64,000 nucleotides of DNA from Nemertoderma westbladi (Eukaryota > Animalia > Xenacoelomorpha), in the NCBI GenBank assembly GCA_032718475.1, contig JAUCBJ010009117.1:1-64000 (forward strand), in the 5' to 3' direction. Positions 13,841 to 47,969 of this stretch are shown piece by piece. The notes beneath the pieces are model-generated. The model was not told where the DNA came from and did not search any database. It was given only the letters and a program-made list of their open reading frames with translations. Every line of letters starts with the position of its first letter. The stretch's first letter is position 1. Made by a program: the position numbers and the translations under genes.

Positions 13841-13859
13841 ACTTTCTATGAGGTTATTA

Positions 13860-19340: not shown

Positions 19341-20103
19341 TAGGGATGGGGCGGAGCTCCGGCTCCAGATTCTCCGGCCTATTTTTTCTACAGTAAAACC
19401 CGGAGATATTTCATTTTCTTCAATGATTCTTAAATATTGTACCGCAAAGTACAACTGGTTTAGTTGACATCCCATAAAGTATATTTTATTGAAAAAATCG
19501 TATTTTTTTTCCTAAAAACTAGAGACTTATTTATTTTTTCTTTCCATTTTTTACCTGTAGAACCTATACTAGTTTTTTTTTACTTGTTTTGATGTAGTAT
19601 TTTGGTTAGGTTTAGTCAGTTAGTTGGTCATAATCTAATAAATTTAGCAGACTTTCTGACATTATTGCATAGCAGCATAGGGCGGAAGGACTGTAAATGG
19701 CCCCAAACCGATTATTACAGCCTGTTACTTAAGTACAGTACTGCAGTACATCAAAACGGTTAGGTCCTTCAGTGGAGTGCACAGCCTGGCTGTTATTGGT
19801 ACTTAATTTCGCAAATCTAACCAAAACATTAAACGAGTTTAGTAAATGAACAGGTTACATGAACGTAGTTGCTGCACGTGCTGTGCACTTGTGTGCAAGT
19901 GCAGTACATGTAGGCCTCCTATGCATACAATAAAAGTTTAAAATTTACGTTTAAACTTGGCCTTTTATACAATATAGGAGGCCTATATTGTATACATACA
20001 TAGTATAATAAAGATTCAAGAAAAAACCCCGGCTCCGGCCGGAGCCACTGCTGCTGATCTCGGCTCCGGGTAACCCTATAATTTTAGCTTCGTCCCATCC
20101 CTA
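19341..20103. mobile_element. Non-autonomous hAT element
   Basis: TIRs TAGGGATGGGGCGGAGCT / AGCTTCGTCCCATCCCTA; 8-bp TSD GTTGTCAC / GTTGCCAC; CCGGCTCC subterminal repeats. Confidence 0.85.
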
Positions 20104-20526
20104 GTTGCCACTCCGTTTCAGTTTAAATTTTCCCTGCCATTTTTCCTGCCATTCGGTATGTATAGTTCATGTTCATATTAGAAACGCCAGGAGGGTATCC
20201 GTAAACGAAACTGGCGTAAACTTTAAATTTGAATTTAAGATTAGACAAAGAGACCTGATCCGGGATCTAACACAGTACTAGGGCATCATAAATCTCGCGC
20301 TTTATCGAGTGAGGTACCAGATACAAATCACCATAACAACAAGAATTGCATTCTCATCTCATTAAGGGTCCTCCTTTCCATAACAACTAACTAACTACCT
20401 CTACAAAGAGGCAGTTTCGCGCTACTAACTATCACAACAACAGACTAAGGACAGGAAAGTTAATTATTACAAACAAATAGAAATACTACAATAATGAAGC
20501 ACAAATTATAAAAAGCATCTCAGAAT

Positions 20527-20590
20527 AGAGACAAATTACAAAGGGGGCGGGGGAATAAGAGTTATAAGGGGGAGGGGAGATGGGAGAGAG
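20527..20590 (-). repeat. CRE-family 3'UTR fragment
   Basis: Reverse complement matches CCCATCTCCCCTCCCCCTTATAACTCTTATTCCCCCGCCCCCTTTGTAATTTGTCTCT at about 6907-6964. Confidence 0.7.
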
Positions 20591-21118
20591 GACAGGAAAG
20601 GTGCGCTTATGTCCTGTATATCCAAATCCCTGACTTTTCACAGATTTGTCAAATTTATACACGAATTCCATCACATTTCCTTGACTATTCCACAGAGTAT
20701 ATATGTTTGTAAACAAACATCTCACTATGTCATCATAATATCAAAAGAATGTTTTAGCTCCAGCTAATAGCTGGTTCACAATGCTGGGGTCATAAACACC
20801 AATATTACACAAACAAAACACCCGCGCTAAAAGTTTTATTAATAAGAGTACTGCACTGAGCACCAGGCGCTGTGGGAGGAACTTGTGAGAGAGAAACTTC
20901 GGTCTGCATATATTATTAATGGTTGTAAAGATGAATTACAGCTTACATGTATGATGAATGAAGTCTTTTGGAATTTACACTCCAAACAAAGATATTATAG
21001 CTTATTGACATTCGTATATAAAATTATGGGAAACTAACAAAGCACGCATACCTGGTGCACGGTGCTGCTATACAGTAACTACACCTATATAGTAAGCATA
21101 ATAAATATAAAATATTAA

Positions 21119-22014
21119 CACCATGTCCCGTAATATAGTGTCATTTTCTGATGACACGGACCCCCCCCCCCCCCCCCCCCCAAATTTTTCTACAAATCTT
21201 TATCATATTGCTTGAAATTTGAAACACAACTAGTTCAACTCACCGTGGTTGTTACCATGAAGCCGGAATTTTCGATTTTCAATTTAATATTTTTTATAGG
21301 CGTTTTAAAAAATGTGTCTTTTGCGAAATCGCACCCTCCGTGTCGTAGCCATTTTTCACATTACTCGTAATTTTTTCATATTATTAAAAAACTTGCGTTG
21401 AAAGGATTCCAAATATGTAACAATATTTGAATTTCGTTGAGAAACAGCTGAGAAATAGGCGTTCAAAGATTGCAAGAATGATCGTTCGCTGCAGGCCATT
21501 TATTCTATTTAATAAATACACCAAATTCTGGAACAATTTGTTTAAGTATGAATAGCTATGCAATATAGATATTGTATAGGCATACCGCTCATAAAATAAA
21601 TAACACGTTCTAGAATTTGGTGTATTTATTAAATAGAATAAATGGCCTGCAGTGAACAATAATTCTTGTAATCTTTGATCGCCTATATCTCAGCTGTTTC
21701 TCAACGAAATTCAGATATTGTTACATATTTTGAATCCTTGCAAGGCAAGCTTTCTATTGATATGAAATTACAACTAATGTGAAGAATGGCAATGATACAG
21801 AGGGTGCGATTTGGCAAAAGACACTTTTTTAAAACGCCTATTAAAAAATTTTAAAGGCGAAATCGAAAATTCCGGCATAATGGGGTCATCGACGGTGAGT
21901 GGTACTAGTTGTGTTTCAAATTTCAAGCAATATGATAAAGATTTGTATAAAAATCTGGGGGGGGGGGGGGGGTCCGTGTCATCAGAAAATGACACTATAT
22001 TACGGGTCATGGTG
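21119..22014. mobile_element. Foldback / long-TIR MITE (about 900 bp, about 400-bp arms)
   Basis: CACCATGTCCCGTAATATAGTGTCATTTTCTGATGACACGGACCCC... is inverted at the right end; the arms pair almost to the centre. Confidence 0.85.
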
Positions 22015-22092
22015 TATAAGTTCAAGGTATCTTATATAATTCCCATTGCAGCTGTGCAGGTTTAAATAAACGTAGGATTTCCAATAACTTAC

Positions 22093-22176
22093 CAAATAAA
22101 ACTAATTTAAGATGTCGGTAGAATTGAATAGCGAATGCTAAATCCTGGGTGTCGTTAATTGTGACCATATCCCCAT
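22093..22176 (-). CDS. TFG: TFG (TRK-fused gene) coding exon 3, PB1 domain C-half
   Basis: tttgtag|AT GGG GAT... encodes (D)GDMVTINDTQDLAFAIQFYRHLKLVLF|gtaagt; compare human TFG [28 protein letters not shown] (from memory); phase matches exon 2. Confidence 0.9.
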
Positions 22177-22301
22177 CTACAAACAACGGTAAAATATAAA
22201 GAGCTGCTAATTATGTAGAAACAGTCCAGCGGCCGTTACCAACCATATATAATGTGTCGGCAGTTACCAACCATATATAATGTATCGGCCTATTTTCTAA
22301 C

Positions 22302-22443
22302 CTTCGTCTGTGTACTTCATACGAACTGCGTCATTCGGTTTTATCTTTCCCCTATAAATTCTCTGCATCATCAACAGAAGCTCGTCGTATGTTATCTCGT
22401 CGTTCTGTATTAGAAGACGTCTAATATCATCACCGAGAGCAAC
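22302..22443 (-). CDS. TFG: TFG coding exon 2, PB1 domain
   Basis: gcacag|[48 protein letters not shown]|gttaga; compare human [47 protein letters not shown]. The first 12 nt lie in the last satellite unit. Confidence 0.92.
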
Positions 22444-25400
22444 CTGTGCGTTACATAAACACTAAATGTAAGTGGTGGGATTGGGGACCGAGAGCAACCT
22501 GTGCGTTACATAAACACTAAATGTAAGTGGTGGGATTGGGGACCGAGAGCAACCTGTGCGTTACATAAACACTAAATGTAAGTGGTGGGATTGGGGACCG
22601 AGAGCAACCTGTGCGTTACATAAACANNNNNNNNNNNNNNNNNNNNNNNNNNNNNNNNNNNNNNNNNNNNNNNNNNNNNNNNNNNNNNNNNNNNNNNNNN
22701 NNNNNNNNNNNNNNNNNNNNNNNNNNATGTAAGTGGTGGGATTGGGGACCGAGAGCAACCTGTGCGTTACATAAACACTAAATGTAAGTGGTGGGATTGG
22801 GGACCGAGAGCAACCTGTGCGTTACATAAACACTAAATGTAAGTGGTGGGATTGGGGACCGAGAGCAACCTGTGCGTTACATAAACACTAAATGTAAGTG
22901 GTGGGATTGGGGACCGAGAGCAACCTGTGCGTTACATAAACACAAAATGTAAGTGGTGGGATTGGGGACCGAGAGCAACCTGTGCGTTACATAAACACAA
23001 AATGGTGGGAAAGGAAGGGAAAAAGTGGTGGGATTGGGGACCGAGAGCAACCTGTGCGTTACATAAACACAAAATGTAAGTGGTGGGATTGGGGACCGAG
23101 AGCAACCTGTGCGTTACATAAACACAAAATGTAAGTGGTGGGATTGGGGACCGAGAGCAACCTGTGCGTTACATAAACACAAAATGTAAGTGGTGGGATT
23201 GGGGACCGAGAGCAACCTGTGCGTTACATAAACACAAAATGTAAGTGGTGGGATTGGGGACCGAGAGCAACCTGTGCGTTACATAAACACAAAATGTAAG
23301 TGGTGGGATTGGGGACCGAGAGCAACCTGTGCGTTACATAAACACAAAATGTAAGTGGTGGGATTGGGGACCGAGAGCAACCTGTGCGTTACATAAACAC
23401 TAAATGTAAGTGGTGGGATTGGGGACCGAGAGCAACCTGTGCGTTACATAAACACAAAATGTAAGTGGTGGGATTGGGGACCGAGAGCAACCTGTGCGTT
23501 ACATAAACACTAAATGTAAGTGGTGGGATTGGGGACCGAGAGCAACCTGTGCGTTACATAAACACAAAATGTAAGTGGTGGGATTGGGGACCGAGAGCAA
23601 CCTGTGCGTTACATAAACACAAAATGTAAGTGGTGGGATTGGGGACCGAGAGCAACCTGTGCGTTACATAAACACAAAATGTAAGTGGTGGGATTGGGGA
23701 CCGAGAGCAACCTGTGCGTTACATAAACACTAAATGTAAGTGGTGGGATTGGGGACCGAGAGCAACCTGTGCGTTACATAAACACAAAATGTAAGTGGTG
23801 GGATTGGGGACCGAGAGCAACCTGTGCGTTACATAAACACAAAATGTAAGTGGTGGGATTGGGGACCGAGAGCAACCTGTGCGTTACATAAACACAAAAT
23901 GTAAGTGGTGGGATTGGGGACCGAGAGCAACCTGTGCGTTACATAAACACAAAATGTAAGTGGTGGGATTGGGGACCGAGAGCAACCTGTGCGTTACATA
24001 AACACTAAATGTAAGTGGTGGGATTGGGGACCGAGAGCAACCTGTGCGTTACATAAACACAAAATGTAAGTGGTGGGATTGGGGACCGAGAGCAACCTGT
24101 GCGTTACATAAACACAAAATGTAAGTGGTGGGATTGGGGACCGAGAGCAACCTGTGCGTTACATAAACACAAAATGTAAGTGGTGGGATTGGGGACCGAG
24201 AGCAACCTGTGCGTTACATAAACACAAAATGTAAGTGGTGGGATTGGGGACCGAGAGCAACCTGTGCGTTACATAAACACAAAATGTAAGTGGTGGGATT
24301 GGGGACCGAGAGCAACCTGTGCGTTACATAAACACTAAATGTAAGTGGTGGGATTGGGGACCGAGAGCAACCTGTGCGTTACATAAACACAAAATGTAAG
24401 TGGTGGGATTGGGGACCGAGAGCAACCTGTGCGTTACATAAACACAAAATGTAAGTGGTGGGATTGGGGACCGAGAGCAACCTGTGCGTTACATAAACAC
24501 AAAATGTAAGTGGTGGGATTGGGGACCGAGAGCAACCTGTGCGTTACATAAACACAAAATGTAAGTGGTGGGATTGGGGACCGAGAGCAACCTGTGCGTT
24601 ACATAAACACAAAATGTAAGTGGTGGGATTGGGGACCGAGAGCAACCTGTGCGTTACATAAACACAAAATGTAAGTGGTGGGATTGGGGACCGAGAGCAA
24701 CCTGTGCGTTACATAAACACAAAATGTAAGTGGTGGGATTGGGGACCGAGAGCAACCTGTGCGTTACATAAACACAAAATGTAAGTGGTGGGATTGGGGA
24801 CCGAGAGCAACCTGTGCGTTACATAAACACAAAATGTAAGTGGTGGGATTGGGGACCGAGAGCAACCTGTGCGTTACATAAACACAAAATGTAAGTGGTG
24901 GGATTGGGGACCGAGAGCAACCTGTGCGTTACATAAACACAAAATGTAAGTGGTGGGATTGGGGACCGAGAGCAACCTGTGCGTTACATAAACACAAAAT
25001 GTAAGTGGTGGGATTGGGGACCGAGAGCAACCTGTGCGTTACATAAACACAAAATGTAAGTGGTGGGATTGGGGACCGAGAGCAACCTGTGCGTTACATA
25101 AACACTAAATGTAAGTGGTGGGATTGGGGACCGAGAGCAACCTGTGCGTTACATAAACACAAAATGTAAGTGGTGGGATTGGGGACCGAGAGCAACCTGT
25201 GCGTTACATAAACACAAAATGTAAGTGGTGGGATTGGGGACCGAGAGCAACCTGTGCGTTACATAAACACAAAATGTAAGTGGTGGGATTGGGGACCGAG
25301 AGCAACCTGTGCGTTACATAAACACAAAATGTAAGTGGTGGGATTGGGGACCGAGAGCAACCTGTGCGTTACATAAACACAAAATGTAAGTGGTGGGATT

Positions 25401-28400
25401 GGGGACCGAGAGCAACCTGTGCGTTACATAAACACAAAATGTAAGTGGTGGGATTGGGGACCGAGAGCAACCTGTGCGTTACATAAACACAAAATGTAAG
25501 TGGTGGGATTGGGGACCGAGAGCAACCTGTGCGTTACATAAACACAAAATGTAAGTGGTGGGATTGGGGACCGAGAGCAACCTGTGCGTTACATAAACAC
25601 AAAATGTAAGTGGTGGGATTGGGGACCGAGAGCAACCTGTGCGTTACATAAACACAAAATGTAAGTGGTGGGATTGGGGACCGAGAGCAACCTGTGCGTT
25701 ACATAAACACTAAATGTAAGTGGTGGGATTGGGGACCGAGAGCAACCTGTGCGTTACATAAACACAAAATGTAAGTGGTGGGATTGGGGACCGAGAGCAA
25801 CCTGTGCGTTACATAAACACAAAATGTAAGTGGTGGGATTGGGGACCGAGAGCAACCTGTGCGTTACATAAACACAAAATGTAAGTGGTGGGATTGGGGA
25901 CCGAGAGCAACCTGTGCGTTACATAAACACAAAATGTAAGTGGTGGGATTGGGGACCGAGAGCAACCTGTGCGTTACATAAACACAAAATGTAAGTGGTG
26001 GGATTGGGGACCGAGAGCAACCTGTGCGTTACATAAACACAAAATGTAAGTGGTGGGATTGGGGACCGAGAGCAACCTGTGCGTTACATAAACACAAAAT
26101 GTAAGTGGTGGGATTGGGGACCGAGAGCAACCTGTGCGTTACATAAACACAAAATGTAAGTGGTGGGATTGGGGACCGAGAGCAACCTGTGCGTTACATA
26201 AACACAAAATGTAAGTGGTGGGATTGGGGACCGAGAGCAACCTGTGCGTTACATAAACACAAAATGTAAGTGGTGGGATTGGGGACCGAGAGCAACCTGT
26301 GCGTTACATAAACACAAAATGTAAGTGGTGGGATTGGGGACCGAGAGCAACCTGTGCGTTACATAAACACAAAATGTAAGTGGTGGGATTGGGGACCGAG
26401 AGCAACCTGTGCGTTACATAAACACAAAATGTAAGTGGTGGGATTGGGGACCGAGAGCAACCTGTGCGTTACATAAACACAAAATGTAAGTGGTGGGATT
26501 GGGGACCGAGAGCAACCTGTGCGTTACATAAACACTAAATGTAAGTGGTGGGATTGGGGACCGAGAGCAACCTGTGCGTTACATAAACACAAAATGTAAG
26601 TGGTGGGATTGGGGACCGAGAGCAACCTGTGCGTTACATAAACACTAAATGTAAGTGGTGGGATTGGGGACCGAGAGCAACCTGTGCGTTACATAAACAC
26701 AAAATGTAAGTGGTGGGATTGGGGACCGAGAGCAACCTGTGCGTTACATAAACACAAAATGTAAGTGGTGGGATTGGGGACCGAGAGCAACCTGTGCGTT
26801 ACATAAACACTAAATGTAAGTGGTGGGATTGGGGACCGAGAGCAACCTGTGCGTTACATAAACACAAAATGTAAGTGGTGGGATTGGGGACCGAGAGCAA
26901 CCTGTGCGTTACATAAACACAAAATGTAAGTGGTGGGATTGGGGACCGAGAGCAACCTGTGCGTTACATAAACACAAAATGTAAGTGGTGGGATTGGGGA
27001 CCGAGAGCAACCTGTGCGTTACATAAACACAAAATGTAAGTGGTGGGATTGGGGACCGAGAGCAACCTGTGCGTTACATAAACACAAAATGTAAGTGGTG
27101 GGATTGGGGACCGAGAGCAACCTGTGCGTTACATAAACACTAAATGTAAGTGGTGGGATTGGGGACCGAGAGCAACCTGTGCGTTACATAAACACAAAAT
27201 GTAAGTGGTGGGATTGGGGACCGAGAGCAACCTGTGCGTTACATAAACACAAAATGTAAGTGGTGGGATTGGGGACCGAGAGCAACCTGTGCGTTACATA
27301 AACACAAAATGTAAGTGGTGGGATTGGGGACCGAGAGCAACCTGTGCGTTACATAAACACTAAATGTAAGTGGTGGGATTGGGGACCGAGAGCAACCTGT
27401 GCGTTACATAAACACAAAATGTAAGTGGTGGGATTGGGGACCGAGAGCAACCTGTGCGTTACATAAACACAAAATGTAAGTGGTGGGATTGGGGACCGAG
27501 AGCAACCTGTGCGTTACATAAACACAAAATGTAAGTGGTGGGATTGGGGACCGAGAGCAACCTGTGCGTTACATAAACACAAAATGTAAGTGGTGGGATT
27601 GGGGACCGAGAGCAACCTGTGCGTTACATAAACACAAAATGTAAGTGGTGGGATTGGGGACCGAGAGCAACCTGTGCGTTACATAAACACAAAATGTAAG
27701 TGGTGGGATTGGGGACCGAGAGCAACCTGTGCGTTACATAAACACTAAATGTAAGTGGTGGGATTGGGGACCGAGAGCAACCTGTGCGTTACATAAACAC
27801 AAAATGTAAGTGGTGGGATTGGGGACCGAGAGCAACCTGTGCGTTACATAAACACAAAATGTAAGTGGTGGGATTGGGGACCGAGAGCAACCTGTGCGTT
27901 ACATAAACACAAAATGTAAGTGGTGGGATTGGGGACCGAGAGCAACCTGTGCGTTACATAAACACAAAATGTAAGTGGTGGGATTGGGGACCGAGAGCAA
28001 CCTGTGCGTTACATAAACACAAAATGTAAGTGGTGGGATTGGGGACCGAGAGCAACCTGTGCGTTACATAAACACAAAATGTAAGTGGTGGGATTGGGGA
28101 CCGAGAGCAACCTGTGCGTTACATAAACACAAAATGTAAGTGGTGGGATTGGGGACCGAGAGCAACCTGTGCGTTACATAAACACAAAATGTAAGTGGTG
28201 GGATTGGGGACCGAGAGCAACCTGTGCGTTACATAAACACTAAATGTAAGTGGTGGGATTGGGGACCGAGAGCAACCTGTGCGTTACATAAACACAAAAT
28301 GTAAGTGGTGGGATTGGGGACCGAGAGCAACCTGTGCGTTACATAAACACAAAATGTAAGTGGTGGGATTGGGGACCGAGAGCAACCTGTGCGTTACATA

Positions 28401-30397
28401 AACACAAAATGTAAGTGGTGGGATTGGGGACCGAGAGCAACCTGTGCGTTACATAAACACAAAATGTAAGTGGTGGGATTGGGGACCGAGAGCAACCTGT
28501 GCGTTACATAAACACAAAATGTAAGTGGTGGGATTGGGGACCGAGAGCAACCTGTGCGTTACATAAACACAAAATGTAAGTGGTGGGATTGGGGACCGAG
28601 AGCAACCTGTGCGTTACATAAACACAAAATGTAAGTGGTGGGATTGGGGACCGAGAGCAACCTGTGCGTTACATAAACACAAAATGTAAGTGGTGGGATT
28701 GGGGACCGAGAGCAACCTGTGCGTTACATAAACACAAAATGTAAGTGGTGGGATTGGGGACCGAGAGCAACCTGTGCGTTACATAAACACAAAATGTAAG
28801 TGGTGGGATTGGGGACCGAGAGCAACCTGTGCGTTACATAAACACAAAATGTAAGTGGTGGGATTGGGGACCGAGAGCAACCTGTGCGTTACATAAACAC
28901 AAAATGTAAGTGGTGGGATTGGGGACCGAGAGCAACCTGTGCGTTACATAAACACAAAATGTAAGTGGTGGGATTGGGGACCGAGAGCAACCTGTGCGTT
29001 ACATAAACACAAAATGTAAGTGGTGGGATTGGGGACCGAGAGCAACCTGTGCGTTACATAAACACAAAATGTAAGTGGTGGGATTGGGGACCGAGAGCAA
29101 CCTGTGCGTTACATAAACACAAAATGTAAGTGGTGGGATTGGGGACCGAGAGCAACCTGTGCGTTACATAAACACAAAATGTAAGTGGTGGGATTGGGGA
29201 CCGAGAGCAACCTGTGCGTTACATAAACACAAAATGTAAGTGGTGGGATTGGGGACCGAGAGCAACCTGTGCGTTACATAAACACAAAATGTAAGTGGTG
29301 GGATTGGGGACCGAGAGCAACCTGTGCGTTACATAAACACAAAATGTAAGTGGTGGGATTGGGGACCGAGAGCAACCTGTGCGTTACATAAACACAAAAT
29401 GTAAGTGGTGGGATTGGGGACCGAGAGCAACCTGTGCGTTACATAAACACAAAATGTAAGTGGTGGGATTGGGGACCGAGAGCAACCTGTGCGTTACATA
29501 AACACAAAATGTAAGTGGTGGGATTGGGGACCGAGAGCAACCTGTGCGTTACATAAACACAAAATGTAAGTGGTGGGATTGGGGACCGAGAGCAACCTGT
29601 GCGTTACATAAACACTAAATGTAAGTGGTGGGATTGGGGACCGAGAGCAACCTGTGCGTTACATAAACACAAAATGTAAGTGGTGGGATTGGGGACCGAG
29701 AGCAACCTGTGCGTTACATAAACACAAAATGTAAGTGGTGGGATTGGGGACCGAGAGCAACCTGTGCGTTACATAAACACAAAATGTAAGTGGTGGGATT
29801 GGGGACCGAGAGCAACCTGTGCGTTACATAAACACAAAATGTAAGTGGTGGGATTGGGGACCGAGAGCAACCTGTGCGTTACATAAACACAAAATGTAAG
29901 TGGTGGGATTGGGGACCGAGAGCAACCTGTGCGTTACATAAACACAAAATGTAAGTGGTGGGATTGGGGACCGAGAGCAACCTGTGCGTTACATAAACAC
30001 TAAATGTAAGTGGTGGGATTGGGGACCGAGAGCAACCTGTGCGTTACATAAACACAAAATGTAAGTGGTGGGATTGGGGACCGAGAGCAACCTGTGCGTT
30101 ACATAAACACAAAATGTAAGTGGTGGGATTGGGGACCGAGAGCAACCTGTGCGTTACATAAACACTAAATGTAAGTGGTGGGATTGGGGACCGAGAGCAA
30201 CCTGTGCGTTACATAAACACAAAATGTAAGTGGTGGGATTGGGGACCGAGAGCAACCTGTGCGTTACATAAACACAAAATGTAAGTGGTGGGATTGGGGA
30301 CCGAGAGCAACCTGTGCGTTACATAAACACAAAATGTAAGTGGTGGGATTGGGGACCGAGAGCAACCTGTGCGTTACATAAACACTAAATGTAAGTG
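22432..30397. repeat. 55-bp tandem satellite, block 1 (about 145 units; contains assembly gap)
   Basis: Unit ACCGAGAGCAACCTGTGCGTTACATAAACACWAAATGTAAGTGGTGGGATTGGGG; near-invariant apart from one A/T site. Confidence 0.98.
22627..22726. other. Assembly gap (100 N)
   Basis: Run of N inside the satellite; true array length unknown. Confidence 0.99.
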
Positions 30398-33300
30398 CAC
30401 ACAAAAAACTGACCTTGTCAAATATGCAAGAAATTTCTTGTCGAAGTATTGACTATAATATTCTTGTCAATATGACGTACATTTCTAGACACATTGACAA
30501 GAAAAATTATCATTATAAAAATGACAAGATTGGTTTGTCAATATAGCAAGAATCATGACAAGATATATTGTCAATATAATGTAGAAGTGTTTGATTTGTC
30601 AATTTAGCAAGAAATCTTGGCCACATACATATAGGCCTAATCATCAATATATTTATTATAATGTACAACAATATTTATACTGTTAGTAGTTAATATATTA
30701 AGCCTCACCCAGATATATTGTTATGTCCTCAGTATCAGCATGTCTGGAAAGATTATAATAGATTTAAGAACCTGCCAACATCATGACCATTGATATTGAT
30801 CATGATCAGTGCATGATCGTCAGATACTTCACAAGAAGTATCCTAAATTGTGTTTCACACATCCAGTATTATGACTGTATGAAGCTATTTGTTCCATTTA
30901 ATAATGATAATGAATTTTTCAACGACCAAGGAAAGGAAATTCAACAGATTAATATTATAGAGATATTTTTTATTTTCCATCCAAAACATTAAAAGGTTTG
31001 TAGTGACACAGTTTAGAACACCATTAGAACATAGTTTGGATGGGTTCCTGGTTTCGGAGGAAGTTCCATAACCATATCAATCATATCTGTGCATTAGGTT
31101 AATTTTCTATGCATGGGTTTATATTACTGCTGTATTGGTTCAGAGCTGTGCTGTACATTATTTGGCAGGGATACTATAGATTCAAATTATTTTAGTATTC
31201 AATTGTTGTTAAATAGTATTATTGTCCAATAAGAAATCTTCACAAAAAAATACCGCCAAAACAACCATATGCTGATCCTATCCAATCCACTGCCACTGCT
31301 ATATATCAGATCCACTGCTATTAGTCAGAGTTCAGACCACCGTAGGTGGTAGGTAGTACTGCAGTAGGACAGGAGGAGGGAGACTCAGCTCAGACTGCAT
31401 TGCTGACATTCAGACATTGGACATTCCGACGTTATACTGTTATAGGCTGGCTGATACAGTGATAGGCCTATTTATAACGGCGCGAGGCAGCACACCATTA
31501 CATCAGTACGTACGTACCCGTACAATAGGCCCTAATCAGCTAATACTGTAGGCCTACTGAATTTTTCATTCAACTTCTGAACTTAGGCCCTATGCCCTAC
31601 AGCCCTATTTCTGTATTTTATAACAAAATGATTCTCTCCTGCTCCTCACTGCCTCAGCTCAAGTCTGCAAGTCAGTCTTCCAGGCTGCCAGGTAGTCTAC
31701 GGTACTCGTCTAACATGAATGAATACCTGACCCTGACATGCCTGAATACCCACTAAGCCGATGACAGTGTTCACTGCTGGTACTGATACTGTGATGTGAT
31801 ATGGTGATGGTCATGGGCCTATAAACTTCAGAACATCAGAACTTATATTTCTGATTTTGGTAAGTTCACAAACACTGAAACAGACAAATTTTACAGTTTT
31901 ACCGGTCTGTCTGTCCGTAGTACAGTACCGGTAGTACCGGTATTTATTTATTAGTTAGTACCGGGAGTATTTATTTATTAGTTTAGTAGGCTACAGTAGT
32001 AACGGTCCTGTAGTATTTATTTATTTATTAGTTTAGTAGGCCTAGTATTTCTTTATTACAGTATTAGTTTAGTACCGGTAGTATTTATTTATTAGATTAG
32101 TATTTGGCCTATTTATTTATTAGTGTAGTAGGCCCTAGTATCTGAGTATTTATTGACTTTTTTAGCAGTTTAGGGGGCTTAGGCCCAGGCATGATGTTGA
32201 CCGTATTACAGTACCGGTATTACTGTCAATATTATTTTGTATTTATATACAACAACTACAAGTAGTGTACAATTTGTTACAGGTCAGTGGAGGACATACC
32301 ACAGGTACATTTCCATTGCTGCACTATCCATGTATCAATGCCGCTGTGTGGTGGAATGTACATCGGGCTAGAATGAGATGATCATATCTACGGTTCCTAC
32401 CTTGCTCGAGATTTACTACCAGGGCTTACGTTTCTATCACATCCTGACATCAGCACATGGCTACCAGTAATGGAGTTACCTAACAGAAACTGCGGCCAAC
32501 TGCAAATATTATCTTCAGGGTTATTCTTCTGACGGCTTGGTCTGTTGGTGGCTGTGGCTGGCAATCTAAAACCTGCAGACCTGACAACTTTAGGAGCAAA
32601 TTGGAGGCTGAAATCAGCGGTACCGGTACTCTAGTTGATTCTGATCCCGCAAATCAAATACATTCAACTATACTACAAGTTCCTTTGGATTGGCAGATTG
32701 GGTTGATTGTGGTCTAACCGGCTAACACTCTGACTGTTCCACAGCGGCTCTGTTTGTTTATAGATCTTGCATGCCGGCCTTCCCATGATTGGCATCGCGT
32801 GTCGCAGTTCTACATAAAGCTTATTGGATTAATGAAACCACATACTCTTTATAATTCTAGAGTAAGTTAGGATATAGGCCTACAATACTACCGGTATTGG
32901 AACTGATGGACTTCTAAATAATGCCACTCAGTGTACCCTCTAACTCACAAGTGATTTCCAGTGTTTAATTAATCAGTAATTTATTTCTAGTATTTAATTT
33001 TAAAGTAAATTATTATTTATAATTCTAACAGTATTATGGCAAGAAATCATGATCATACGAATGGCAGAGACACACTCAAAAATTTAACCTAACATTTCAC
33101 TATTTTATTGTTAATTTGAGTTCCTGACAGCGTATTTTTCAAAATGTTCACTGGGAAAAGTTTCTACTTGTTTATTCGAAAAATTGCTACTGCTGTGTAT
33201 CGCTAATTTAATTTTCTACTTGATTTCTGTATTAATTTATTAAGATTTAAATATCATGGCGGCAGGTGGGCCAGGCCATCATCGGTCACTGTGGTTCGGT

Positions 33301-33844
33301 TGGCAGAAACAGACTAAATCCATTATGGATAGCATGTGCGAATGTTGGTAGTATTAAATTTGTAATATATCAATGTTTGAATTTCAAATTGTACAGAAAA
33401 TTTGCATTTTTCAATATTCGCTATTATTTACTATTTAGAAATATGGCTTAACAATTTTTAGAAATTGTGATTTTATTTATTTATAGATTTAATTCACATT
33501 TTTATTCATTATGGTTAGTTTTGGTTTTTATGAAAAATATTATGGTTATATATATAAAGCAAGAATAGTTATTGGGGTGTATTTAGGCAGTTACCGGTAT
33601 GTGATTAAAATAAAAAAAAATTTTAGGTTAGTAGGTCAAAATATATGTTTCAAATACAATAATATTTTGTTAAGATGTGTATTATAATTTGTACCAATAA
33701 ATTAAGTAAGTTGTTTAAATTTGTTTAGGGTTTGGTAATTCGATGATTTGAACCATGAAATTGACTAGCTTGACCAAACGGACTGACAAATAAGGTATAT
33801 TCGCCTGACGAAGTGAGCAAATTTACTCCCCAACGAAAATATTA

Positions 33845-34077
33845 CAGATAGGGGGGGAACTGGGCGCAATAAAATTCATCCCTCTCCAGGGGAAATTGGA
33901 CGCAAATAACAGATGATTACTCTCAAAAATAAAACCTTAGTTTATTGTTTTGGTTAAAATAACGTTCCACTGTAACCTGCTCCTTTCCCTAAATTGAGAA
34001 TTTAACATTGATGCGGGATATTAATTCGCCAAGGCGGGTGTTGCGTCCAGCCCCCCCCCCCCCCCTCCCCCTGTCTC
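33845..34077 (-). mobile_element. MITE copy (family of 13588-13840) nested in the CACTA element
   Basis: Reverse-complement similarity over its whole length. Confidence 0.65.
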
Positions 34078-34084
34078 ATATATG

Positions 34085-34806
34085 AACTTGCCCAAACGGG
34101 CAAGTTAAATATATTAGCTTGCCAAAATGGGCAAGTTATATTTTAACTTGCCCAAACTGGCAAGTTAAATATATTAGATGCCAAAATGGGCAAGTTATAT
34201 TTTAACTTGCCCAAACTGGCAAGTTAAATATTATGGCTTGCCAAAATGGGCAAGTTATATTTTAGCTTGCCCAAACTGGCAAGTTAAATATAATGGCTTG
34301 CCAAAATGGGCAAGTTATATTTTAAATTGCCCAAACTGGCAAGTTAAATATATTAGCTTGCCAAAATGGGCAAGTTATATTTAAACTTGCCCCGACGGGC
34401 AAGTTAAATATATTAGCTTGCCAAAATGGGCAAGTTATATTTTAAATTGCCCAAACTGGCAAGTTAAATATATTAGCTTGCCAAAATGGGCAAGTTATAT
34501 TTAAACTTGCCCCGACGGGCAAGTTAAATATATTAGCTTGCCAAAATGGGCAAGTTATATTTTAACTTGCCCAAACTGGCAAGTTAAATATATTAGATGC
34601 CAAAATGGGCAAGTTATATTTTAACTTGCCCAAACTGGCAAGTTAAATATTATGGCTTGCCAAAATGGGCAAGTTATATTTTAGCTTGCCCAAACTGGCA
34701 AGTTAAATATTATGGCTTGCCAAAATGGGCAAGTTATATTTTAACTTGCCCAAACTGGCAAGTTAAATATAATGGCTTGCGAAAATGGGCAAGTTATATA
34801 TTAACT
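34085..34806. repeat. 60-bp tandem repeat (about 12 copies) built from two 30-bp hairpin half-units
   Basis: AACTTGCCCAAACTGGCAAGTT alternating with CTTGCCAAAATGGGCAAGTT. Confidence 0.92.
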
Positions 34807-35414
34807 ACCTATATACTTATTTACTATGAGCATTAACTATACAGACAGCAAATTTTTGTATTCCGTTACAACTACAAATGAAGATGAAACAGTTGAAGTT
34901 GTAATAAGTATTGAAATGCAGCAGAGGAATATCCGCCGTTTTTTAATTATTATTAAGTATGCTATTTAGAGTTGCCTTTAATTGGATTGTTATTAATTAA
35001 TAATTATTATTCTCATGCAATAAATATCTGCCTTTGTTTATAAAGATATTATAAAGTAAAATAATTTCATTACGAATAGATTTCTTTCTTTATTATATTA
35101 TTGACGTTTCACCATGTGTGGAGTGTGTTGTGCAAGAAACTATATAATTAATATCCGGTGATTTTGACAAGAATATTTGTCAATAAAATTGGCTATATTT
35201 ATAGCCAAAATGGAAAGAATTTTGCAGATTTAACAAGATATTCTTGTCAAGGATTGCAAGTATTCTTGTCAATACAACCAGAAATTCTTGCCAATTCTAA
35301 TGACAAGAAATTCTTGCTAATTTGACAATCAGATTTGTGGCTAACTATTGACATGGGATTCTTGTCATTTTGAACATTTTTTTTTGTCAAATTGACAAGA
35401 CACTTTTTAGAGTG

Positions 35415-38343
35415 TGGTGGGATTGGGGACCGAGAGCAACCTGTGCGTTACATAAACACAAAATGTAAGTGGTGGGATTGGGGACCGAGAGCAACCTGTG
35501 CGTTACATAAACACTAAATGTAAGTGGTGGGATTGGGGACCGAGAGCAACCTGTGCGTTACATAAACACTAAATGTAAGTGGTGGGATTGGGGACCGAGA
35601 GCAACCTGTGCGTTACATAAACACAAAATGTAAGTGGTGGGATTGGGGACCGAGAGCAACCTGTGCGTTACATAAACACAAAATGTAAGTGGTGGGATTG
35701 GGGACCGAGAGCAACCTGTGCGTTACATAAACACTAAATGTAAGTGGTGGGATTGGGGACCGAGAGCAACCTGTGCGTTACATAAACACAAAATGTAAGT
35801 GGTGGGATTGGGGACCGAGAGCAACCTGTGCGTTACATAAACACTAAATGTAAGTGGTGGGATTGGGGACCGAGAGCAACCTGTGCGTTACATAAACACA
35901 AAATGTAAGTGGTGGGATTGGGGACCGAGAGCAACCTGTGCGTTACATAAACACTAAATGTAAGTGGTGGGATTGGGGACCGAGAGCAACCTGTGCGTTA
36001 CATAAACACAAAATGTAAGTGGTGGGATTGGGGACCGAGAGCAACCTGTGCGTTACATAAACACAAAATGTAAGTGGTGGGATTGGGGACCGAGAGCAAC
36101 CTGTGCGTTACATAAACACAAAATGTAAGTGGTGGGATTGGGGACCGAGAGCAACCTGTGCGTTACATAAACACAAAATGTAAGTGGTGGGATTGGGGAC
36201 CGAGAGCAACCTGTGCGTTACATAAACACTAAATGTAAGTGGTGGGATTGGGGACCGAGAGCAACCTGTGCGTTACATAAACACAAAATGTAAGTGGTGG
36301 GATTGGGGACCGAGAGCAACCTGTGCGTTACATAAACACAAAATGTAAGTGGTGGGATTGGGGACCGAGAGCAACCTGTGCGTTACATAAACACAAAATG
36401 TAAGTGGTGGGATTGGGGACCGAGAGCAACCTGTGCGTTACATAAACACTAAATGTAAGTGGTGGGATTGGGGACCGAGAGCAACCTGTGCGTTACATAA
36501 ACACAAAATGTAAGTGGTGGGATTGGGGACCGAGAGCAACCTGTGCGTTACATAAACACTAAATGTAAGTGGTGGGATTGGGGACCGAGAGCAACCTGTG
36601 CGTTACATAAACACAAAATGTAAGTGGTGGGATTGGGGACCGAGAGCAACCTGTGCGTTACATAAACACAAAATGTAAGTGGTGGGATTGGGGACCGAGA
36701 GCAACCTGTGCGTTACATAAACACAAAATGTAAGTGGTGGGATTGGGGACCGAGAGCAACCTGTGCGTTACATAAACACAAAATGTAAGTGGTGGGATTG
36801 GGGACCGAGAGCAACCTGTGCGTTACATAAACACAAAATGTAAGTGGTGGGATTGGGGACCGAGAGCAACCTGTGCGTTACATAAACACAAAATGTAAGT
36901 GGTGGGATTGGGGACCGAGAGCAACCTGTGCGTTACATAAACACAAAATGTAAGTGGTGGGATTGGGGACCGAGAGCAACCTGTGCGTTACATAAACACA
37001 AAATGTAAGTGGTGGGATTGGGGACCGAGAGCAACCTGTGCGTTACATAAACACAAAATGTAAGTGGTGGGATTGGGGACCGAGAGCAACCTGTGCGTTA
37101 CATAAACACAAAATGTAAGTGGTGGGATTGGGGACCGAGAGCAACCTGTGCGTTACATAAACACAAAATGTAAGTGGTGGGATTGGGGACCGAGAGCAAC
37201 CTGTGCGTTACATAAACACAAAATGTAAGTGGTGGGATTGGGGACCGAGAGCAACCTGTGCGTTACATAAACACAAAATGTAAGTGGTGGGATTGGGGAC
37301 CGAGAGCAACCTGTGCGTTACATAAACACAAAATGTAAGTGGTGGGATTGGGGACCGAGAGCAACCTGTGCGTTACATAAACACTAAATGTAAGTGGTGG
37401 GATTGGGGACCGAGAGCAACCTGTGCGTTACATAAACACAAAATGTAAGTGGTGGGATTGGGGACCGAGAGCAACCTGTGCGTTACATAAACACTAAATG
37501 TAAGTGGTGGGATTGGGGACCGAGAGCAACCTGTGCGTTACATAAACACTAAATGTAAGTGGTGGGATTGGGGACCGAGAGCAACCTGTGCGTTACATAA
37601 ACACAAAATGTAAGTGGTGGGATTGGGGACCGAGAGCAACCTGTGCGTTACATAAACACAAAATGTAAGTGGTGGGATTGGGGACCGAGAGCAACCTGTG
37701 CGTTACATAAACACTAAATGTAAGTGGTGGGATTGGGGACCGAGAGCAACCTGTGCGTTACATAAACACAAAATGTAAGTGGTGGGATTGGGGACCGAGA
37801 GCAACCTGTGCGTTACATAAACACAAAATGTAAGTGGTGGGATTGGGGACCGAGAGCAACCTGTGCGTTACATAAACACAAAATGTAAGTGGTGGGATTG
37901 GGGACCGAGAGCAACCTGTGCGTTACATAAACACAAAATGTAAGTGGTGGGATTGGGGACCGAGAGCAACCTGTGCGTTACATAAACACAAAATGTAAGT
38001 GGTGGGATTGGGGACCGAGAGCAACCTGTGCGTTACATAAACACAAAATGTAAGTGGTGGGATTGGGGACCGAGAGCAACCTGTGCGTTACATAAACACT
38101 AAATGTAAGTGGTGGGATTGGGGACCGAGAGCAACCTGTGCGTTACATAAACACAAAATGTAAGTGGTGGGATTGGGGACCGAGAGCAACCTGTGCGTTA
38201 CATAAACACAAAATGTAAGTGGTGGGATTGGGGACCGAGAGCAACCTGTGCGTTACATAAACACTAAATGTAAGTGGTGGGATTGGGGACCGAGAGCAAC
38301 CTGTGCGTTACATAAACACAAAATGTAAGTGGTGGGATTGGGG
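35415..38343. repeat. 55-bp tandem satellite, block 2 (about 53 units)
   Basis: Same unit, orientation and phase as block 1; ends exactly on a unit boundary (...GATTGGGG). Confidence 0.98.
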
Positions 38344-38712
38344 TCGTAGAAGGCTTTGCGTCACCGGTGTTACAAAACTACAGCACTGTCCAATGTGCAG
38401 TGAACTCTTGGTGACGATTTGGAAACCCTTAGCCAGTTAGCAACACGGTCTGGTAATAAATTTTACTATCTGCTAATGCTGTAATGTTTTTAATTCGTTT
38501 GTAACTCTACATGAACTCGTTTGTTTGTTTGTACCCTTTCTTTGTATTATTTCAATTGGGTATACCTCTAATAATAATGTTTCAATTTTTGTACAATTCT
38601 GTACGTTCCGTAAAACCGTTGCCTATTGCAGATCACACACATCCCACTATCCTCCAAATCTTATGGTATGTATGTACTCAAACTCAGTCGACCCAACTAC
38701 CACTGCACTGAC

Positions 38713-38766
38713 CTTTATTATAACTTTGTTGCTCATATCAATATCACCGAAGACGTTTTTGGCCAT
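38713..38766 (-). CDS. TFG: TFG first coding exon
   Basis: ATG...MAKNVFGDIDMSNKVIIK|gtcagt; compare human MNGQLDLSGKLIIK; phase-0 join to VALGDDIRR. Confidence 0.85.
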
Positions 38767-39428
38767 AATCCAGTAATCAGATGATGCAATATATACAATC
38801 AAGGACTTGATACAATACAGCAATGGTGAAAGTATTCATTAACATTAAATGGCAGTGCGAGAACGTATGTTCGTTTGCACAGTTTGTGCAGTTGTGGTGG
38901 TCAGAAATCTCGGGCTGTCGGGGTCACCGAACTACCGAAGCTGCGAAGGGAAGGTATCGGTACTACTGTGTAGGCCTACTTCTCAGCTCTGCAGACTGCA
39001 GCTTGTGTACTGCTGTACTGTACTATGTTAAGGAAGTATTTGGCGTGGAAAACTATCTGAGTGTCATTATTATTATTATTATTATTATTACACCCATAGT
39101 CAAAAATTGCACATATGAAATTTATTTCAAATAAAATAGATCATTAGATAAAAATATATACAGTAAGTAGTGGGGGAGGAGACTAACCAGGCCCGTGCAC
39201 TTACGGTTAGCCATTCCATTATTTAAGTTAATTAATTTGTATACTAATCGTTATAAGTACATGTAAAAGTAACTAAAAAGTATTAAATAATTAAACGTTT
39301 CCCTGATAAAAATATTTTTCTAAAAAATATTGTTAAAGATATTTTTCTACTGCCCGTACTGAAATTGATATATTAACAATAAATAGTATTATATAATAAC
39401 ATGAGTTATGCCAAAAATAATCAAATTA

Positions 39429-39790: not shown

Positions 39791-41129
39791 TGTGAGTGAC
39801 TGAGTGGGCACCCGTCATTAAGGATAGTTGTAGCGAAGTTCTTGTGTTCGGCGCATAGACCTGTAGACTACTGGACTAATGATAGTGATAGAGTACCGGT
39901 ACCATAGGCAGAGGCCTATGTGCCTATTGCATTATTGATTAAAAACGAAAATATTCATTCTGTCTGACTGATGCACTAAGACTGTAAGAAGTAGGCCTTG
40001 TCCTGTCAGCCTGTTGTCTCTGCTTGTTAGTTCTGTAGTTCAGTAGGTAGTGATAGTGAGTGAGTCTGTAAAGCTGTAAACAGGTAAAGGTACGGTCTGA
40101 CGGTAGTTAGTTAGATACAATTATCTAGAATATAAATATGCTATTAGCTAAGGCCTATTCCTGTATTCTGTCTGTCTGTAGGCCTATTCTAGTCCAGTAC
40201 TCCGACAGTCCGGGAGATGACGTGGTGTTGGTGTAGGGCTGTACTGCTGTAGCCTGTAGGGCTGTAGGGTAGGGTAGGCCGTAGGGCCTACCTTTATAAA
40301 CTTTGTAAACGTTTTTCTAGACAAGTAAGTATTCTTGGGTTTGACTTTTCGGCGTAGGTGTAGTCTACGCGTAGCCTACGCGTAGGCTACGCGTATGTGA
40401 TCGAATGCAGTTTCGCGTAGGTAAATTTTTCGCGCAGGTCAGTAGGTAACCAATGAATGAATCGAACTAGAGCTTTAAGAAAAGAGAGGTAAATTCAAAT
40501 AAGCTCAATCCTATAAACGATATAAAGTTGTTTGGCAGTTTGGTGTATTATGATAGTGCAGGACAGACTAACTGAGATAGGCCTATACTAACAAAAGCAA
40601 CCTTTGTGCGTTGTGTTCCACATACACAGGGACAGACCAGATTAGGCCTCCACGGTATGTATTGTATATATATACTGATATATATATTTATTGATTATGT
40701 CATGTACCGGTACGGTCAGACGGTACTCAGGTACTGTATATAGTACCGGTATAAAGCAAATAATGTTTATTGTGACTCGTTAATACTGCGTGCGTCAGTG
40801 TATCACGTATTAGAGTAGTTTAGGTACGTACTCCATACTCAGCTAAGCATGCTCAGTAATACAGCAGAATACATTGAGTCGTAAGTCTACTACGGTAGAC
40901 TTTGGACGATTCTACCTAAAACATTCACATATGCATTCACGTATGCCGTTCAAGGTAAAATAAGTCGGAATCTTTCAAAGTATATTATAATACCTGTACA
41001 ACGCAGTGTATTCCAATTCCATTGCAATATTGTCGGAATTCTGATTTGCTCTTTTTAGCTCGTCTATGTCATTAGTTTATCGTTATTTATTTAAGATTTT
41101 ATAGGATGGATCCAGTGAAATTAATTGGT

Positions 41130-41789
41130 GGTAACCGAGTTCGGAGGGTAACTTACATTGGTCCTTCTACCTCAAGGGGTCTTCGGTAACCGAGTTTGGA
41201 GGGTAACTTACTTGGTCCTTCTACCTCAAGGGGTCTTCGGTAACCGAGTTCGGAGGGTAACTTACATTGGTCCTTCTACCTCAAGGGGTCTTCGGTAACC
41301 GAGTTCGGAGGGTAACTTACATTGGTCCTTCTACCTCAAGGGGTCTTCGGTAACCGAGTTCGGAGGGTAACTTACATTGGTCCTTCTACCTCAAGGGGTC
41401 TTCGGTAACCGAGTTCGGAGGGTAACTTACATTGGTCCTTCTACCTCAAGGGGTCTTCGGTAACCGAGTTCGGAGGGTAACTTACATTGGTCCTTCTACC
41501 TCAAGGGGTCTTCGGTAACCGAGTTCGGAGGGTAACTTACATTGGTCCTTCTACCTCAAGGGGTCTTCGGTAACCGATTTCGGAGGGTAACTTACATTGG
41601 TCCTTCTACCTCAAGGGGTCTTCGGTAACCGAGTTCGGAGGGTAACTTACATTGGTCCTTCTACCTCAAGGGGTCTTCGGTAACCGAGTTCGGAGGGTAA
41701 CTTACATTGGTCCTTCTACCTCAAGGGGTCTTCGGTAACCGAGTTCGGAGGGTAACTTACATTGGTCCTTCTACCTCAAGGGGTCTTCG
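41130..41789. repeat. 55-bp minisatellite (12 copies) inside the transposase exon
   Basis: Unit GGTAACCGAGTTCGGAGGGTAACTTACATTGGTCCTTCTACCTCAAGGGGTCTTC. Confidence 0.95.
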
Positions 41790-43211
41790 TCAAATAGTTA
41801 TGCATTGTTAAAATCGGAATCCAGTTCATTATCTCTCAGTGTACTTCAATCCATCAACATACAAGCTTGAGGATGATGATTCTACCGATGATTCTACTGA
41901 TATGCAACTGTAATTATATAATATATTATATTAATATCTATTTATTATTATATTATTGAATAATAGTAAATATTTAATTACTTTATAATAATATTATTTT
42001 TGTTATTTTTCAGGGAAAAGATTCGACGACGCCATGTGTTATGTTCTGATGTGTTGGACGTAGTTGAGGAAACTATTTCGCAGAACTTAAGCTTTAACAT
42101 AAAGCCTAAATTGTTGGCATCCGATATCAATAAGACTCATAATACTGATATGTTACAAACATCGCGTTTGGAGGACAATGTTTCGGCGAAACATGTTAGC
42201 AACGCTAAGGCTCGTTTTAAAAAGAACATGGACCCCCATACCAATGTAATGTTACTTAAGGCTTCAGAGTCCGAAGATGAAACCCTGTTTATCCGGGAAT
42301 GCGTGTACAAAGACATTGGGTTCCTATACCAACTTTATACCGATCGTCAAGTTCAAGAGGCCGTAATATTTTGCTCTGGACCGGGGGCCTTTGCTTTGGG
42401 AGTGGACGCAGTATTCAACATCTCTCAGCAGTGTTGCGGTTTCTTCACAACATACCGCGCATTGGTTTTTGAAGGTAATCCTGTGTTATTAGGACCTGGT
42501 GGATTGATACCGAAAAAGGTCGAGGATTGTTATCGCCATGTTTTGATGCCGTTGTGAAATACAAGTCTTTCCAGAGACCTAACTTAATGCTCTTCCGATG
42601 GCGAGACGGCAATAATAAATGCCGTATCACAATTATTTCCCTATTGCGTTCAAATTCGGGGCCTTGAACACCTTGAAAATATTTCACAGAAAGCTCGAAA
42701 ATGTGGTGTTACTAAAACAGGATATTAATAAGTTGGTATTATCAGATGCTATCAGTGATGAATTTAATGTGATGATTGATAGGTACTTGTGTGATGGAAT
42801 AGACGTTAGAGTGTGTCAGTACTTGATGGAACTGTTTCCAATTTTTAGAGAATTGCAATATTGGGATACTAAGAAACCGTGATAGACGGATCCTCTATAA
42901 TCAAGCAGTGAAATCAATGAATAAAGTTATTAAGGATTTCTCCAATAAGCTGCAAGTTGATGACGCTATAGTTCGTATTAAGGATGTCGTTCGTGCGCAA
43001 CATGATGAAGTCGTGAAAGACTTTCTAGGCGTTGGTAAATTCAAGCTTAAAAACCAATTTAAGCACCTGGGAATTTCGCAAGCAGATTACTTCTCGCTGA
43101 GTGTTTCAGAAAGGATGTGGTGGTACAAGAACCATTTAGAAAAGATCCATAAAGAGCTTCTGAGTGACTTGTTTACTCTACAAGGATTTATACAGGATGG
43201 GGATGTAATTG

Positions 43212-43588
43212 TGTGTGATGCAGCTGGAGGCTTAAGTCAGCGTGAGGCAGCTGGTGGTTTAAGTCAGTGTGATGCAGCTGGAGGCTTAAGTCAGCGTGAG
43301 GCAGCTGGTGGTTTAAGTCAGTAGTGTGATGCAGCTGGTGGTTAAGTCAGTGTGATGCAGCTGGAGGCTTAAGTCAGTGTGAGGCAGCTGGAGGTTAAAG
43401 TCAGTGTGATGCAGCTGGAGGCTTAAGTCAGCGTGAGGCAGCTGGAGGCTTAAGTCAGCGTGAGGCAGCTGGTGGTTTAAGTCAGTGTGATGCAGCTGGA
43501 GGCTTAAGTCAGCGTGAGGCAGCTGGTGGTTTAAGTCAGTGTGATGCAGCTGGAAGCTTAAGTCAGCGTGATGCAGCTGGTGGTTTAA
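43212..43588. repeat. 27-bp minisatellite (about 14 copies)
   Basis: GTGATGCAGCTGGAGGCTTAAGTCAGY, read as (C/R)(D/E)AAGGLSQ. Confidence 0.9.
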
Positions 43589-43711
43589 GTGATATAAGTG
43601 GGTGTGAGGCAGAAGTTATAGAATGTTATGTAATTGATGACACCGCTACATTGAGTGGGCCATATAGTGAAGTGGGGCTTGGCCTTGGATTGTATGAGAA
43701 AAGTAAAGATA

Positions 43712-45009: not shown

Positions 45010-45801
45010 TCGCTGGGACCGATTGAACAGGGTGAACTTATAACTTTATTTTTTGAGGAATTAGTAAGCCGATTAGAATTAACGCGGGCTGTTGCCAATG
45101 TTATTATTCGTGAAGGTAAACGTCTTTTGGACGATGGCATGGTGTTGGCAGAGACGGGCAGGGACGTAGCAATCAGGTCTCGCACTATTAACAAGATATA
45201 CCTTGTACAACGTGCTGCATCAAAGTTTGGCGTTAAATTCGTATGCGAATGTACGGGATTTAAGGGAAACCGAGTATGCTCACACGTTCTCGCGGCTGGT
45301 CTATTCACAAACAATATACAGGGGATGGTGAAAGAATTGTCGAAATCAAAGAATATAAAAAAAGGGAGCATTTCAAATGTCGCCATAGCAACATCGGGAC
45401 CAGGTGCTGGTAAGAAACCAGGTGCCACAAGTAGGAGGAGAGGTGGAAGAGCACCATTGGTCGAAATGAATCCCCCAGCCAATGGAGAATGTACATTTAT
45501 AGTTCGACCAGAATCATCACGCGGACATCAACAAACGCAAAGAAGTGTGCGTCTTGTGAAATCCAATTTAAGACGGAGAGGGTACTTGTAAAATTTTGGG
45601 GAGAATCTAGTTTTTATCTCAATGGGCTAGCGAATACGAAACCTGCATTTAAATATGCCCATTTCAACAATCTTTGTATCCAGCGCTGCTACGAAGGAAG
45701 GGATAAGAAATATGTTACAATATCAGAATCAACCAAGGAGCTAATAACTAGTGTGGATGTGATGGCTCTACGAGATATAGGTGTTTTAGTAGAAGAGTGA
45801 A

Positions 45802-47967: not shown

Positions 47968-47969
47968 TT

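Follow-up and report, generated by a model that had tools for sequence, protein, structure and literature searches.

A 64,000-nucleotide stretch of the genome of Nemertoderma westbladi (Xenacoelomorpha; positions 1 to 64,000 of contig JAUCBJ010009117.1, GenBank assembly GCA_032718475.1; hereafter 'the window') carries exons that match the gene TFG (TRK-fused gene), and in one intron of this gene the 3' splice site has been multiplied into a long tandem array. The repeat unit of 55 bp joins the end of the intron to the start of the following exon, and each of the 196 units that we counted brings its own acceptor. The array is real and lies in place. In the spliced RNA that we found, the upstream exon is joined to the last of these acceptors. 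Probably this acceptor is picked by exon definition, while decay clears whatever leaks from the others.

On the minus strand the unit comprises 43 nt of intron end and 12 nt of exon start, and the array shows 196 unit starts and 196 acceptor motifs. Tandem Repeats Finder reports a period of 55 with 99-100% matches in three blocks (22432-22626, 22727-30397 and 35414-38343); 10,795 array bases (10.8 kb) are visible in the window. Its first base, 38343, and its last, 22432, fall exactly on unit borders. The flanking bases do not extend the unit on either side, and no microhomology was found at the edges. As assembled, the array-bearing intron is 16,269 nt long; collapsed to one unit, it measures 412 nt. 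The initial annotation, made from the sequence alone, had described this unit and these exact ends, had put the collapsed intron at about 410 nt, and had expected the three flanking exons to align to TFG; all four points are confirmed. Its figure of about 200 copies agrees with our count but is only a floor for the assembly. A scaffold gap of 100 N and an insert both lie inside the array, so its real length is not fixed by the assembly.

The units are strikingly uniform. At a single variable site 156 of the 196 carry T and 37 carry A; the remaining three are one split by the insert, one of 72 bp and one spanning the N run. Thus 193 of 196 units are identical except at one site, the homogenisation that concerted evolution leads one to expect. 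The T/A pattern holds no higher-order repeat above chance (96 of 500 shuffles reach the observed value). The six readable whole units closest to the used acceptor (22432-22926), three of which lie past the N gap, are all of the A variant, against 19% overall; this variant adds an extra AG between a branch-like motif and the acceptor.

Which gene has been affected? Exon 22443-22302 has a single PDB match, entry 9e7c, 'Protein TFG' (E 4.9e-14); three of three database homologues agree, two Hydra TFG isoforms among them (Hydra TFG, 64%). Exon 22176-22093 aligns to the next stretch of 9e7c (E 1.9e-4, again the sole PDB match). The start-codon exon aligns with the N-terminal end of TFG, and the next exon follows on directly in the alignment; the three coding exons are collinear with TFG. 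Taken singly, the 21-residue first coding piece had no PDB match, and a Pfam scan of the single exons gave no PB1 match. Judged by these alignments, the exons belong to the N-terminal, PB1-type region of TFG. The transcript also has a non-coding exon farther upstream. Two RNA contigs that cover 38711-38940 (from runs X4 and X5, introduced below) have loose 5' ends at 38940, of 46 and 13 letters, and 20 and 13 of these letters match exactly near 40207-40267, each once in the window. With this exon in the RNA, the array falls in intron 2 of the transcript and not, as initially annotated, in intron 1. At the other end, the mRNA past 22093 resembles, in a loose contig end, the first part of the coiled-coil exon of Hydra TFG, but the following TFG exon is absent from the window (0 matches with up to 3 mismatches). 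Either the scaffold is faulty, or the next TFG intron is longer than 22 kb and encloses two intronless frames. Both frames are on the same strand as TFG: one at 7902-9488 encodes a CAAX prenyl protease (Peptidase M48, E 8e-56), and one of 153 amino acids at 12080-12541 matches no family above the cut-off.

The intron itself is old. Among 35 TFG loci in metagenome contigs, eight, with 4 distinct sequences, show an AG acceptor at this codon; as the position is common to four distinct TFG sequences, we rejected the intron-gain model, in which the duplication would have created the intron. The other 27 loci read through the position, some of them probably being transcripts, and none of the 35 has an array there. 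An origin of the unit from a dispersed repeat was rejected as well: none of its 12-mers occurs elsewhere in the window. An exact 31-nt match to the unit is likewise absent from the metagenome contigs, which carries little weight for an animal. The proposal that the acceptor of a conserved gene was amplified in place is supported. Five further arrays in the window, with units of 33-60 bp and 92-99% matches, suggest that local amplification of arbitrary sequence is common in this genome, in which case no function need be invoked. One of the other arrays in the window, at 41130-41789, also has a 55-bp unit, unrelated in sequence (12 copies, 99%). It lies just upstream of the non-coding TFG exon, beside a transposon-like region, and its unit contains a perfect GTAAGT donor-like motif on the minus strand; it could be a donor-side counterpart of the TFG array or a product of chance.

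To establish that the array exists outside the assembly, we turned to sequencing data: six runs under one organism label, from three studies, not one of them recorded as RNA, in the form of Logan contigs. Four of them, here X1, X2, X4 and X5, were examined. Runs were mapped to the flanks of the array only, with 1.6 and 2 units attached. The library type is not on record. X1 and X2 behave as DNA; X4 and X5 are taken as RNA because their contigs are spliced, and the records assign X5 and X2 to the same sample. In X1 and in X2 a unique contig connects the intron to the first unit; the exon contigs end 30 nt into the last unit, where the assembly graph branches into the array. Contigs of 31-mers that span unit-to-unit junctions reach depths of 4,723 (X1) and 646 (X2); they have fewer than 31 letters on each side of the junction, but such words arise only in tandem copies. 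The flanks have depths of 8.6-11.5 and 24.8 in X1 and of 23.8-29.3 in X2. Contigs of X1 and X2 show no array entry or exit besides one on the intron side and one on the exon side, an absence that has some weight in X2, where a variant of depth 5 survived, and little in X1, whose contigs include neither the A variant nor the insert junction.

The two DNA runs also differ from each other. The ratio of unit to flank depth is 159-548 in X1 and 22-31 in X2; contig depth is not copy number, and the difference between the ratios is a rough sign only, but individuals seem to differ about tenfold in unit number. X2 represents another genotype: between 20556 and 21146 it differs at full depth by a 3-nt deletion and three substitutions. 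Its flanks, at 25.4 and 29.3, are as deep as expected of single-copy sequence (23.8-26.5 nearby). The T variant makes up 83% of units in X1, 67% in X2 and 81% in the window. The closeness of the X1 share to that of the window, together with unique contigs free of differences, suggests that X1 may be the source of the assembly and hence not independent of it. The length of the array is probably polymorphic.

The RNA runs show which acceptor is used. In X4 a contig of 1,220 nt with a depth of 1,838.8 aligns by its positions 805-948 to 22302-22445 and by its positions 945-1174 to 38711-38940. In it 38713 is followed directly by 22443; the 12 shared bases occur once, no unit is retained, and the 125-nt intron before 22176 is spliced out. 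The part of the contig left unaligned at either flank is the exon of the other flank. In X5 a contig of 398 nt (depth 8.32) has the same junction (14-243 and 240-383). The junction predicted by the initial annotation was thus found in two of two spliced runs, from two studies, minor forms being invisible in contigs. The sole array contig in X4 has 85 nt, 83 of them aligned over 1.5 units, and a depth of 6.7, or 0.36% of that of the mRNA contig. Because a mis-spliced molecule keeps at least one unit, this value sets a ceiling on the steady-state level of such molecules, as far as contig depth allows and with the reservation that the array may be short in that sample. In no X4 contig does the upstream exon run on into a retained unit. 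Neither the lack of cover on the unique intron nor the lack of mis-spliced or exon-skipping contigs is counted as proof.

What would happen if another acceptor were used? All 195 internal acceptors lead to an early stop, as had been anticipated: for 192 it lies within the first unit kept in the RNA, 15 codons past the junction, and a stop follows the remaining three as well, in one case across the N run and thus uncertainly. Only the last acceptor yields an open frame. Of the two branch-like motifs noted initially, CTTAC places its A at -26 in all units and stands as a candidate, whereas the A of GTAAC, 8 nt from the acceptor, is too near for a usual branch point. The pyrimidine tract of the unit is weak (8-9 of 17 positions, against 12-13 of 17 for two other TFG acceptors). 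What distinguishes the last copy is found on its exon side. The body of the unique exon is 62% purine, against 36% in the unit, and it contains five GAYGA motifs, of which the unit has none. We scored donors by a simple count of matches to the consensus, out of 9. The donor of exon 22302..22443, 142 nt downstream of the last acceptor, scores 7; the GT motifs within the unit score 3-6, against 7-8 for the donors of the three coding exons. RNA structure as a means of hiding the internal acceptors was rejected, as three units fold no better than shuffled sequences (z -0.25).

These observations fit a choice made by exon definition. The last copy alone has a real exon body behind it and a donor 142 nt away, and would be chosen for that reason. 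A weak acceptor that needs support from its exon is what exon definition predicts. In the globin tests of Reed and Maniatis in 1986, a duplicated acceptor placed internally and followed by little exon sequence was reportedly passed over. The history of the locus probably ran as follows. A 55-bp piece across an old TFG intron/exon border was copied where it stood and multiplied into 196 units or more; unequal crossing-over or slippage would have driven this growth and homogenised the units, in a genome where arrays of the kind are plentiful. The last acceptor would have continued to be chosen through exon definition and the purine-rich exon sequence, and nonsense-mediated decay would have removed leak products, hiding errors and leaving the array to drift almost neutrally. 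A CACTA-like element presumably landed in it later.

Several points weigh against this account. The second-last acceptor would make an exon of 197 nt, an ordinary size (the next ones would define 252 nt, 307 nt and upward), so that length alone cannot exclude it. Contigs drop minor branches, and rare mis-spliced forms could be missed; steady-state RNA, moreover, cannot separate accurate choice from decay. The array may be short in the sample behind X4 (S3), for which no DNA run was seen. The flanks in X1 differ twofold in depth (24.8 over 38314-39060, 8.6-11.5 over 19470-22461), possibly through an upstream duplication or the loss of a haplotype on the downstream side, although they are balanced in X2. 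The most awkward observation comes from X5, where an array contig has a depth of 77.6, 9.3 times that of the mRNA contig, while the unique intron is uncovered. DNA carried over as in X2 predicts about 1-14 here, judged by an X5/X2 depth ratio of 0.001-0.019 on the element at 21118-22015. The excess could reflect low levels of pre-mRNA or excised intron multiplied by many units, another genotype filed under the one sample record, retention or circles, and it requires extra assumptions (many units times less than twofold pre-mRNA). The same contig has a T>C change at 38304 (unit position 40; A to G in the sense strand, 4 nt before the junction) that is not listed for X1, X2 or X4. A-to-I editing is a possible source of the change, which affects one site only, with no notable duplex.

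Could the internal acceptors in fact be used often, with nonsense-mediated decay destroying the products and array length lowering TFG output? The 195 sites are alike but for one position and all lead to an early stop, and the X5 excess would fit as well. Neighbouring pseudo-donors in human ABCA7, IFI6 and CBS are used, and the ABCA7 products rise with cycloheximide, according to the available parts of the reports (PMC5954066, PMC1557585). The X4 data speak against such leakiness, both in the low depth of array RNA and in the want of a contig with a retained unit. Decay rarely hides a major isoform so completely, and we consider frequent internal use unlikely. Another way of coping with the array would be a recursive ratchet. 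In every unit the AG is followed by GT, so each splice would rebuild a donor at the start of the exon, and the intron could be removed stepwise up to the last acceptor, errors being repaired on the way. The rebuilt donor scores 6 of 9, within the range of the donors used in TFG (4-8) and above the two donors of the non-coding exon (4 and 5). It lacks, however, both the A at +4 and the G at +5, while one or both are present in all five used donors; it also remains in the spliced mRNA, where at a depth of 1,839 we see no contig that skips the exon; and in mammals, less clearly in Drosophila, the exon junction complex represses such re-splicing, according to the accessible text of PMC6224609. We regard the ratchet as quite improbable, and its extension, a working array of dual sites that sheds seamless circles of 55 x n nt and could thereby explain the X5 excess, as a long shot. 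Were the ratchet real, it would account for the growth of an AG-GT junction, inside a housekeeping gene, into an array of hundreds of units.

The mRNA might also come from another copy or allele of TFG free of the array, the locus in the window being a partial or silent duplicate. The missing downstream exon, not found in the 22 kb of the window beyond 22093, would fit this, as would the twofold difference between the X1 flanks. It is very improbable all the same: the X2 flanks have single-copy-like depth, the exon contigs of X1 and X2 stop in the last unit just where the graph branches into the array, the pieces of the mRNA agree with the window and contain no extra letters, and X5 and X2 are recorded as one sample. 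That an assembler expanded a single unit, finally, can hardly be credited. The 100-N gap does lie in the array, but the unit-to-unit junctions stand far above flanks of 9-25 (X1) and 24-29 (X2), X2 is of another genotype, and the T share in X1 fits that of the window. An assembly artefact, which the initial annotation had named as the finding that would undo it, is already contradicted by two DNA runs.

The array is likely tolerated because only its last copy precedes a real exon. The locus offers a natural test of 3' splice-site choice, in which a conserved gene with high expression skips some 195 perfect acceptors with branch-like motifs. Comparing long and short alleles would gauge the extent to which decoy sites are buffered by exon definition, by decay or by re-splicing. 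Arrays of this kind also break gene models and hide in assembly gaps.

The features of the locus are collected in Table 1. The insert inside the array ends in CAC...GTG, with 11 of 14 terminal bases inverted and a 2-bp duplication (CA), and all 13 copies of a subterminal 7-mer lie within 250 nt of its ends. We take it to belong to CACTA/EnSpm (CMC) on features typical of that family; having no stop-free frame above 79 codons, and hence no transposase gene by that measure, it would be a non-autonomous CACTA/EnSpm-like element.

Table 1. Features of the TFG locus and its array in the window, in order of transcription
Feature	Position	Strand	Remarks
Non-coding upstream TFG exon	40207..40267	-	alternative donors 40222 (X4), 40207 (X5); upper end approximate
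TFG start-codon exon	38713..38940	-	ATG at 38766, 18 codons; donor 8/9 consensus
Unique 5' part of intron	38344..38712	-	369 nt; X1 and X2 DNA contigs run into first unit
Array block 1	35415..38343	-	53 whole 55-bp units + 14 nt of split unit
Putative CACTA/EnSpm-like insertion	30398..35414	.	5,017 bp, within one unit; contains 60-bp x 12 repeat
Array block 2	22727..30397	-	about 139 units, incl. 72-bp variant at 23039
Assembly gap in array	22627..22726	.	100 N
Array block 3	22432..22626	-	last 3.5 units; final unit 22486-22432 with used acceptor 22444/22443
TFG PB1-region exon	22302..22443	-	142 nt; first 12 nt = exonic part of unit
TFG exon	22093..22176	-	84 nt, after 125-nt intron; joint 22176-22302 in X4

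Other repetitive elements surround these features. The intron after 22093 contains an inverted-repeat element of about 900 bp (21118-22015; 85% self-inverted), whose depth in the DNA runs is thousands-fold above its flanks. On the plus strand, 41970-46447 contains transposon-like frames with in-frame arrays of 27 bp x 14 and 33 bp x 39.5 and, behind the frames, an array of 38 bp x 17; the frames contain a CxC...CxH motif, presumably SWIM-like, without a Pfam match. A retroelement-like frame of 1,125 codons (2322-5699; no Pfam match at E 1) is surrounded by near-identical direct repeats at 1415-2390 and 5975-6954 (98-99.8%), the whole spanning 1415-6954. Two broken copies of a LINE-like reverse transcriptase, at 13763-15400 and 47883-49901, are 95% alike over 1.45 kb.

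The initial annotation knew of no described case at this scale, a view that is not supported, for related arrays are known on both sides of introns. The nearest are the 'mirage' minisatellites of amphioxus, described in the globin genes BflGb6 and BflGb9 and in Adh3 (available parts of PMC3087553) and also in troponin C and PGBD5, the last with 2-7 units (available parts of PMC3902484); as far as these texts go, mirages leave splicing undisturbed. They share with the TFG array a tandem repeat of intron 3' end and next exon start (BflGb6), AG/GT signals, concerted evolution and a normal mRNA, and, like them, the TFG array has a unit that spans the intron/exon border, a splice signal in every unit, a terminal copy that is used and homogenised units. 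Mirages differ in length between haplotypes, and here the X1 and X2 depth ratios and T shares differ as given above. For the Adh3 mirage, somatic instability has reportedly been seen as well. The scale is another matter: BflGb6 has 6 and 3 units of 150-160 bp with 81-100% identity (PMC3087553, in the part available), whereas the TFG array has at least 196 near-identical units of 55 bp over 10.8 kb and is interrupted by the transposon-like insert.

Recursive splice sites and RS-exons resemble the unit in having AG directly before GT, so that ligation rebuilds a donor; those covered by the accessible text of PMC6224609 are single and conserved, with strong rebuilt donors, and the contig data of our four runs give no evidence of recursive use here. 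Human variable-number tandem repeats (VNTRs) at splice junctions offer a second comparison: F7 intron 7, IFI6 (6-16), CBS intron 13, LMNB2 and PDGF (PMC1557585, available part). In these the first monomer spans the exon/intron border, pseudo-sites follow, and the site beside the real exon is mostly or only used, as in TFG; but they repeat the donor, with 5-25 pseudo-sites or units, while here the acceptor is repeated and the used site is the last transcribed.

In scale the closest is the VNTR in ABCA7 intron 18, which in the accessible text of PMC5954066 has from 12 to about 427 units and extends to 10.7 kb, with strong length polymorphism and a decay-sensitive transcript that retains one unit. 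It lies on the donor side, its 25-bp unit starts from the GT without an exonic part, and its expansion raises exon skipping and disease risk (same source). We see no such effect on TFG, which contig data could not in any case reveal. In a search that was thin on subscription literature we found no published acceptor-side array as large as this one, and the available parts of PMC10078293 and PMC13196383 describe none on that side. Set beside F7 and ABCA7, the TFG array is a mirror image, repeating the acceptor before an exon and not the donor behind one. It is the largest acceptor-side case among those compared, with a copy number on that side above any that we found in print. Its kind is known from the amphioxus mirages; what is new is its size and its apparent length polymorphism.

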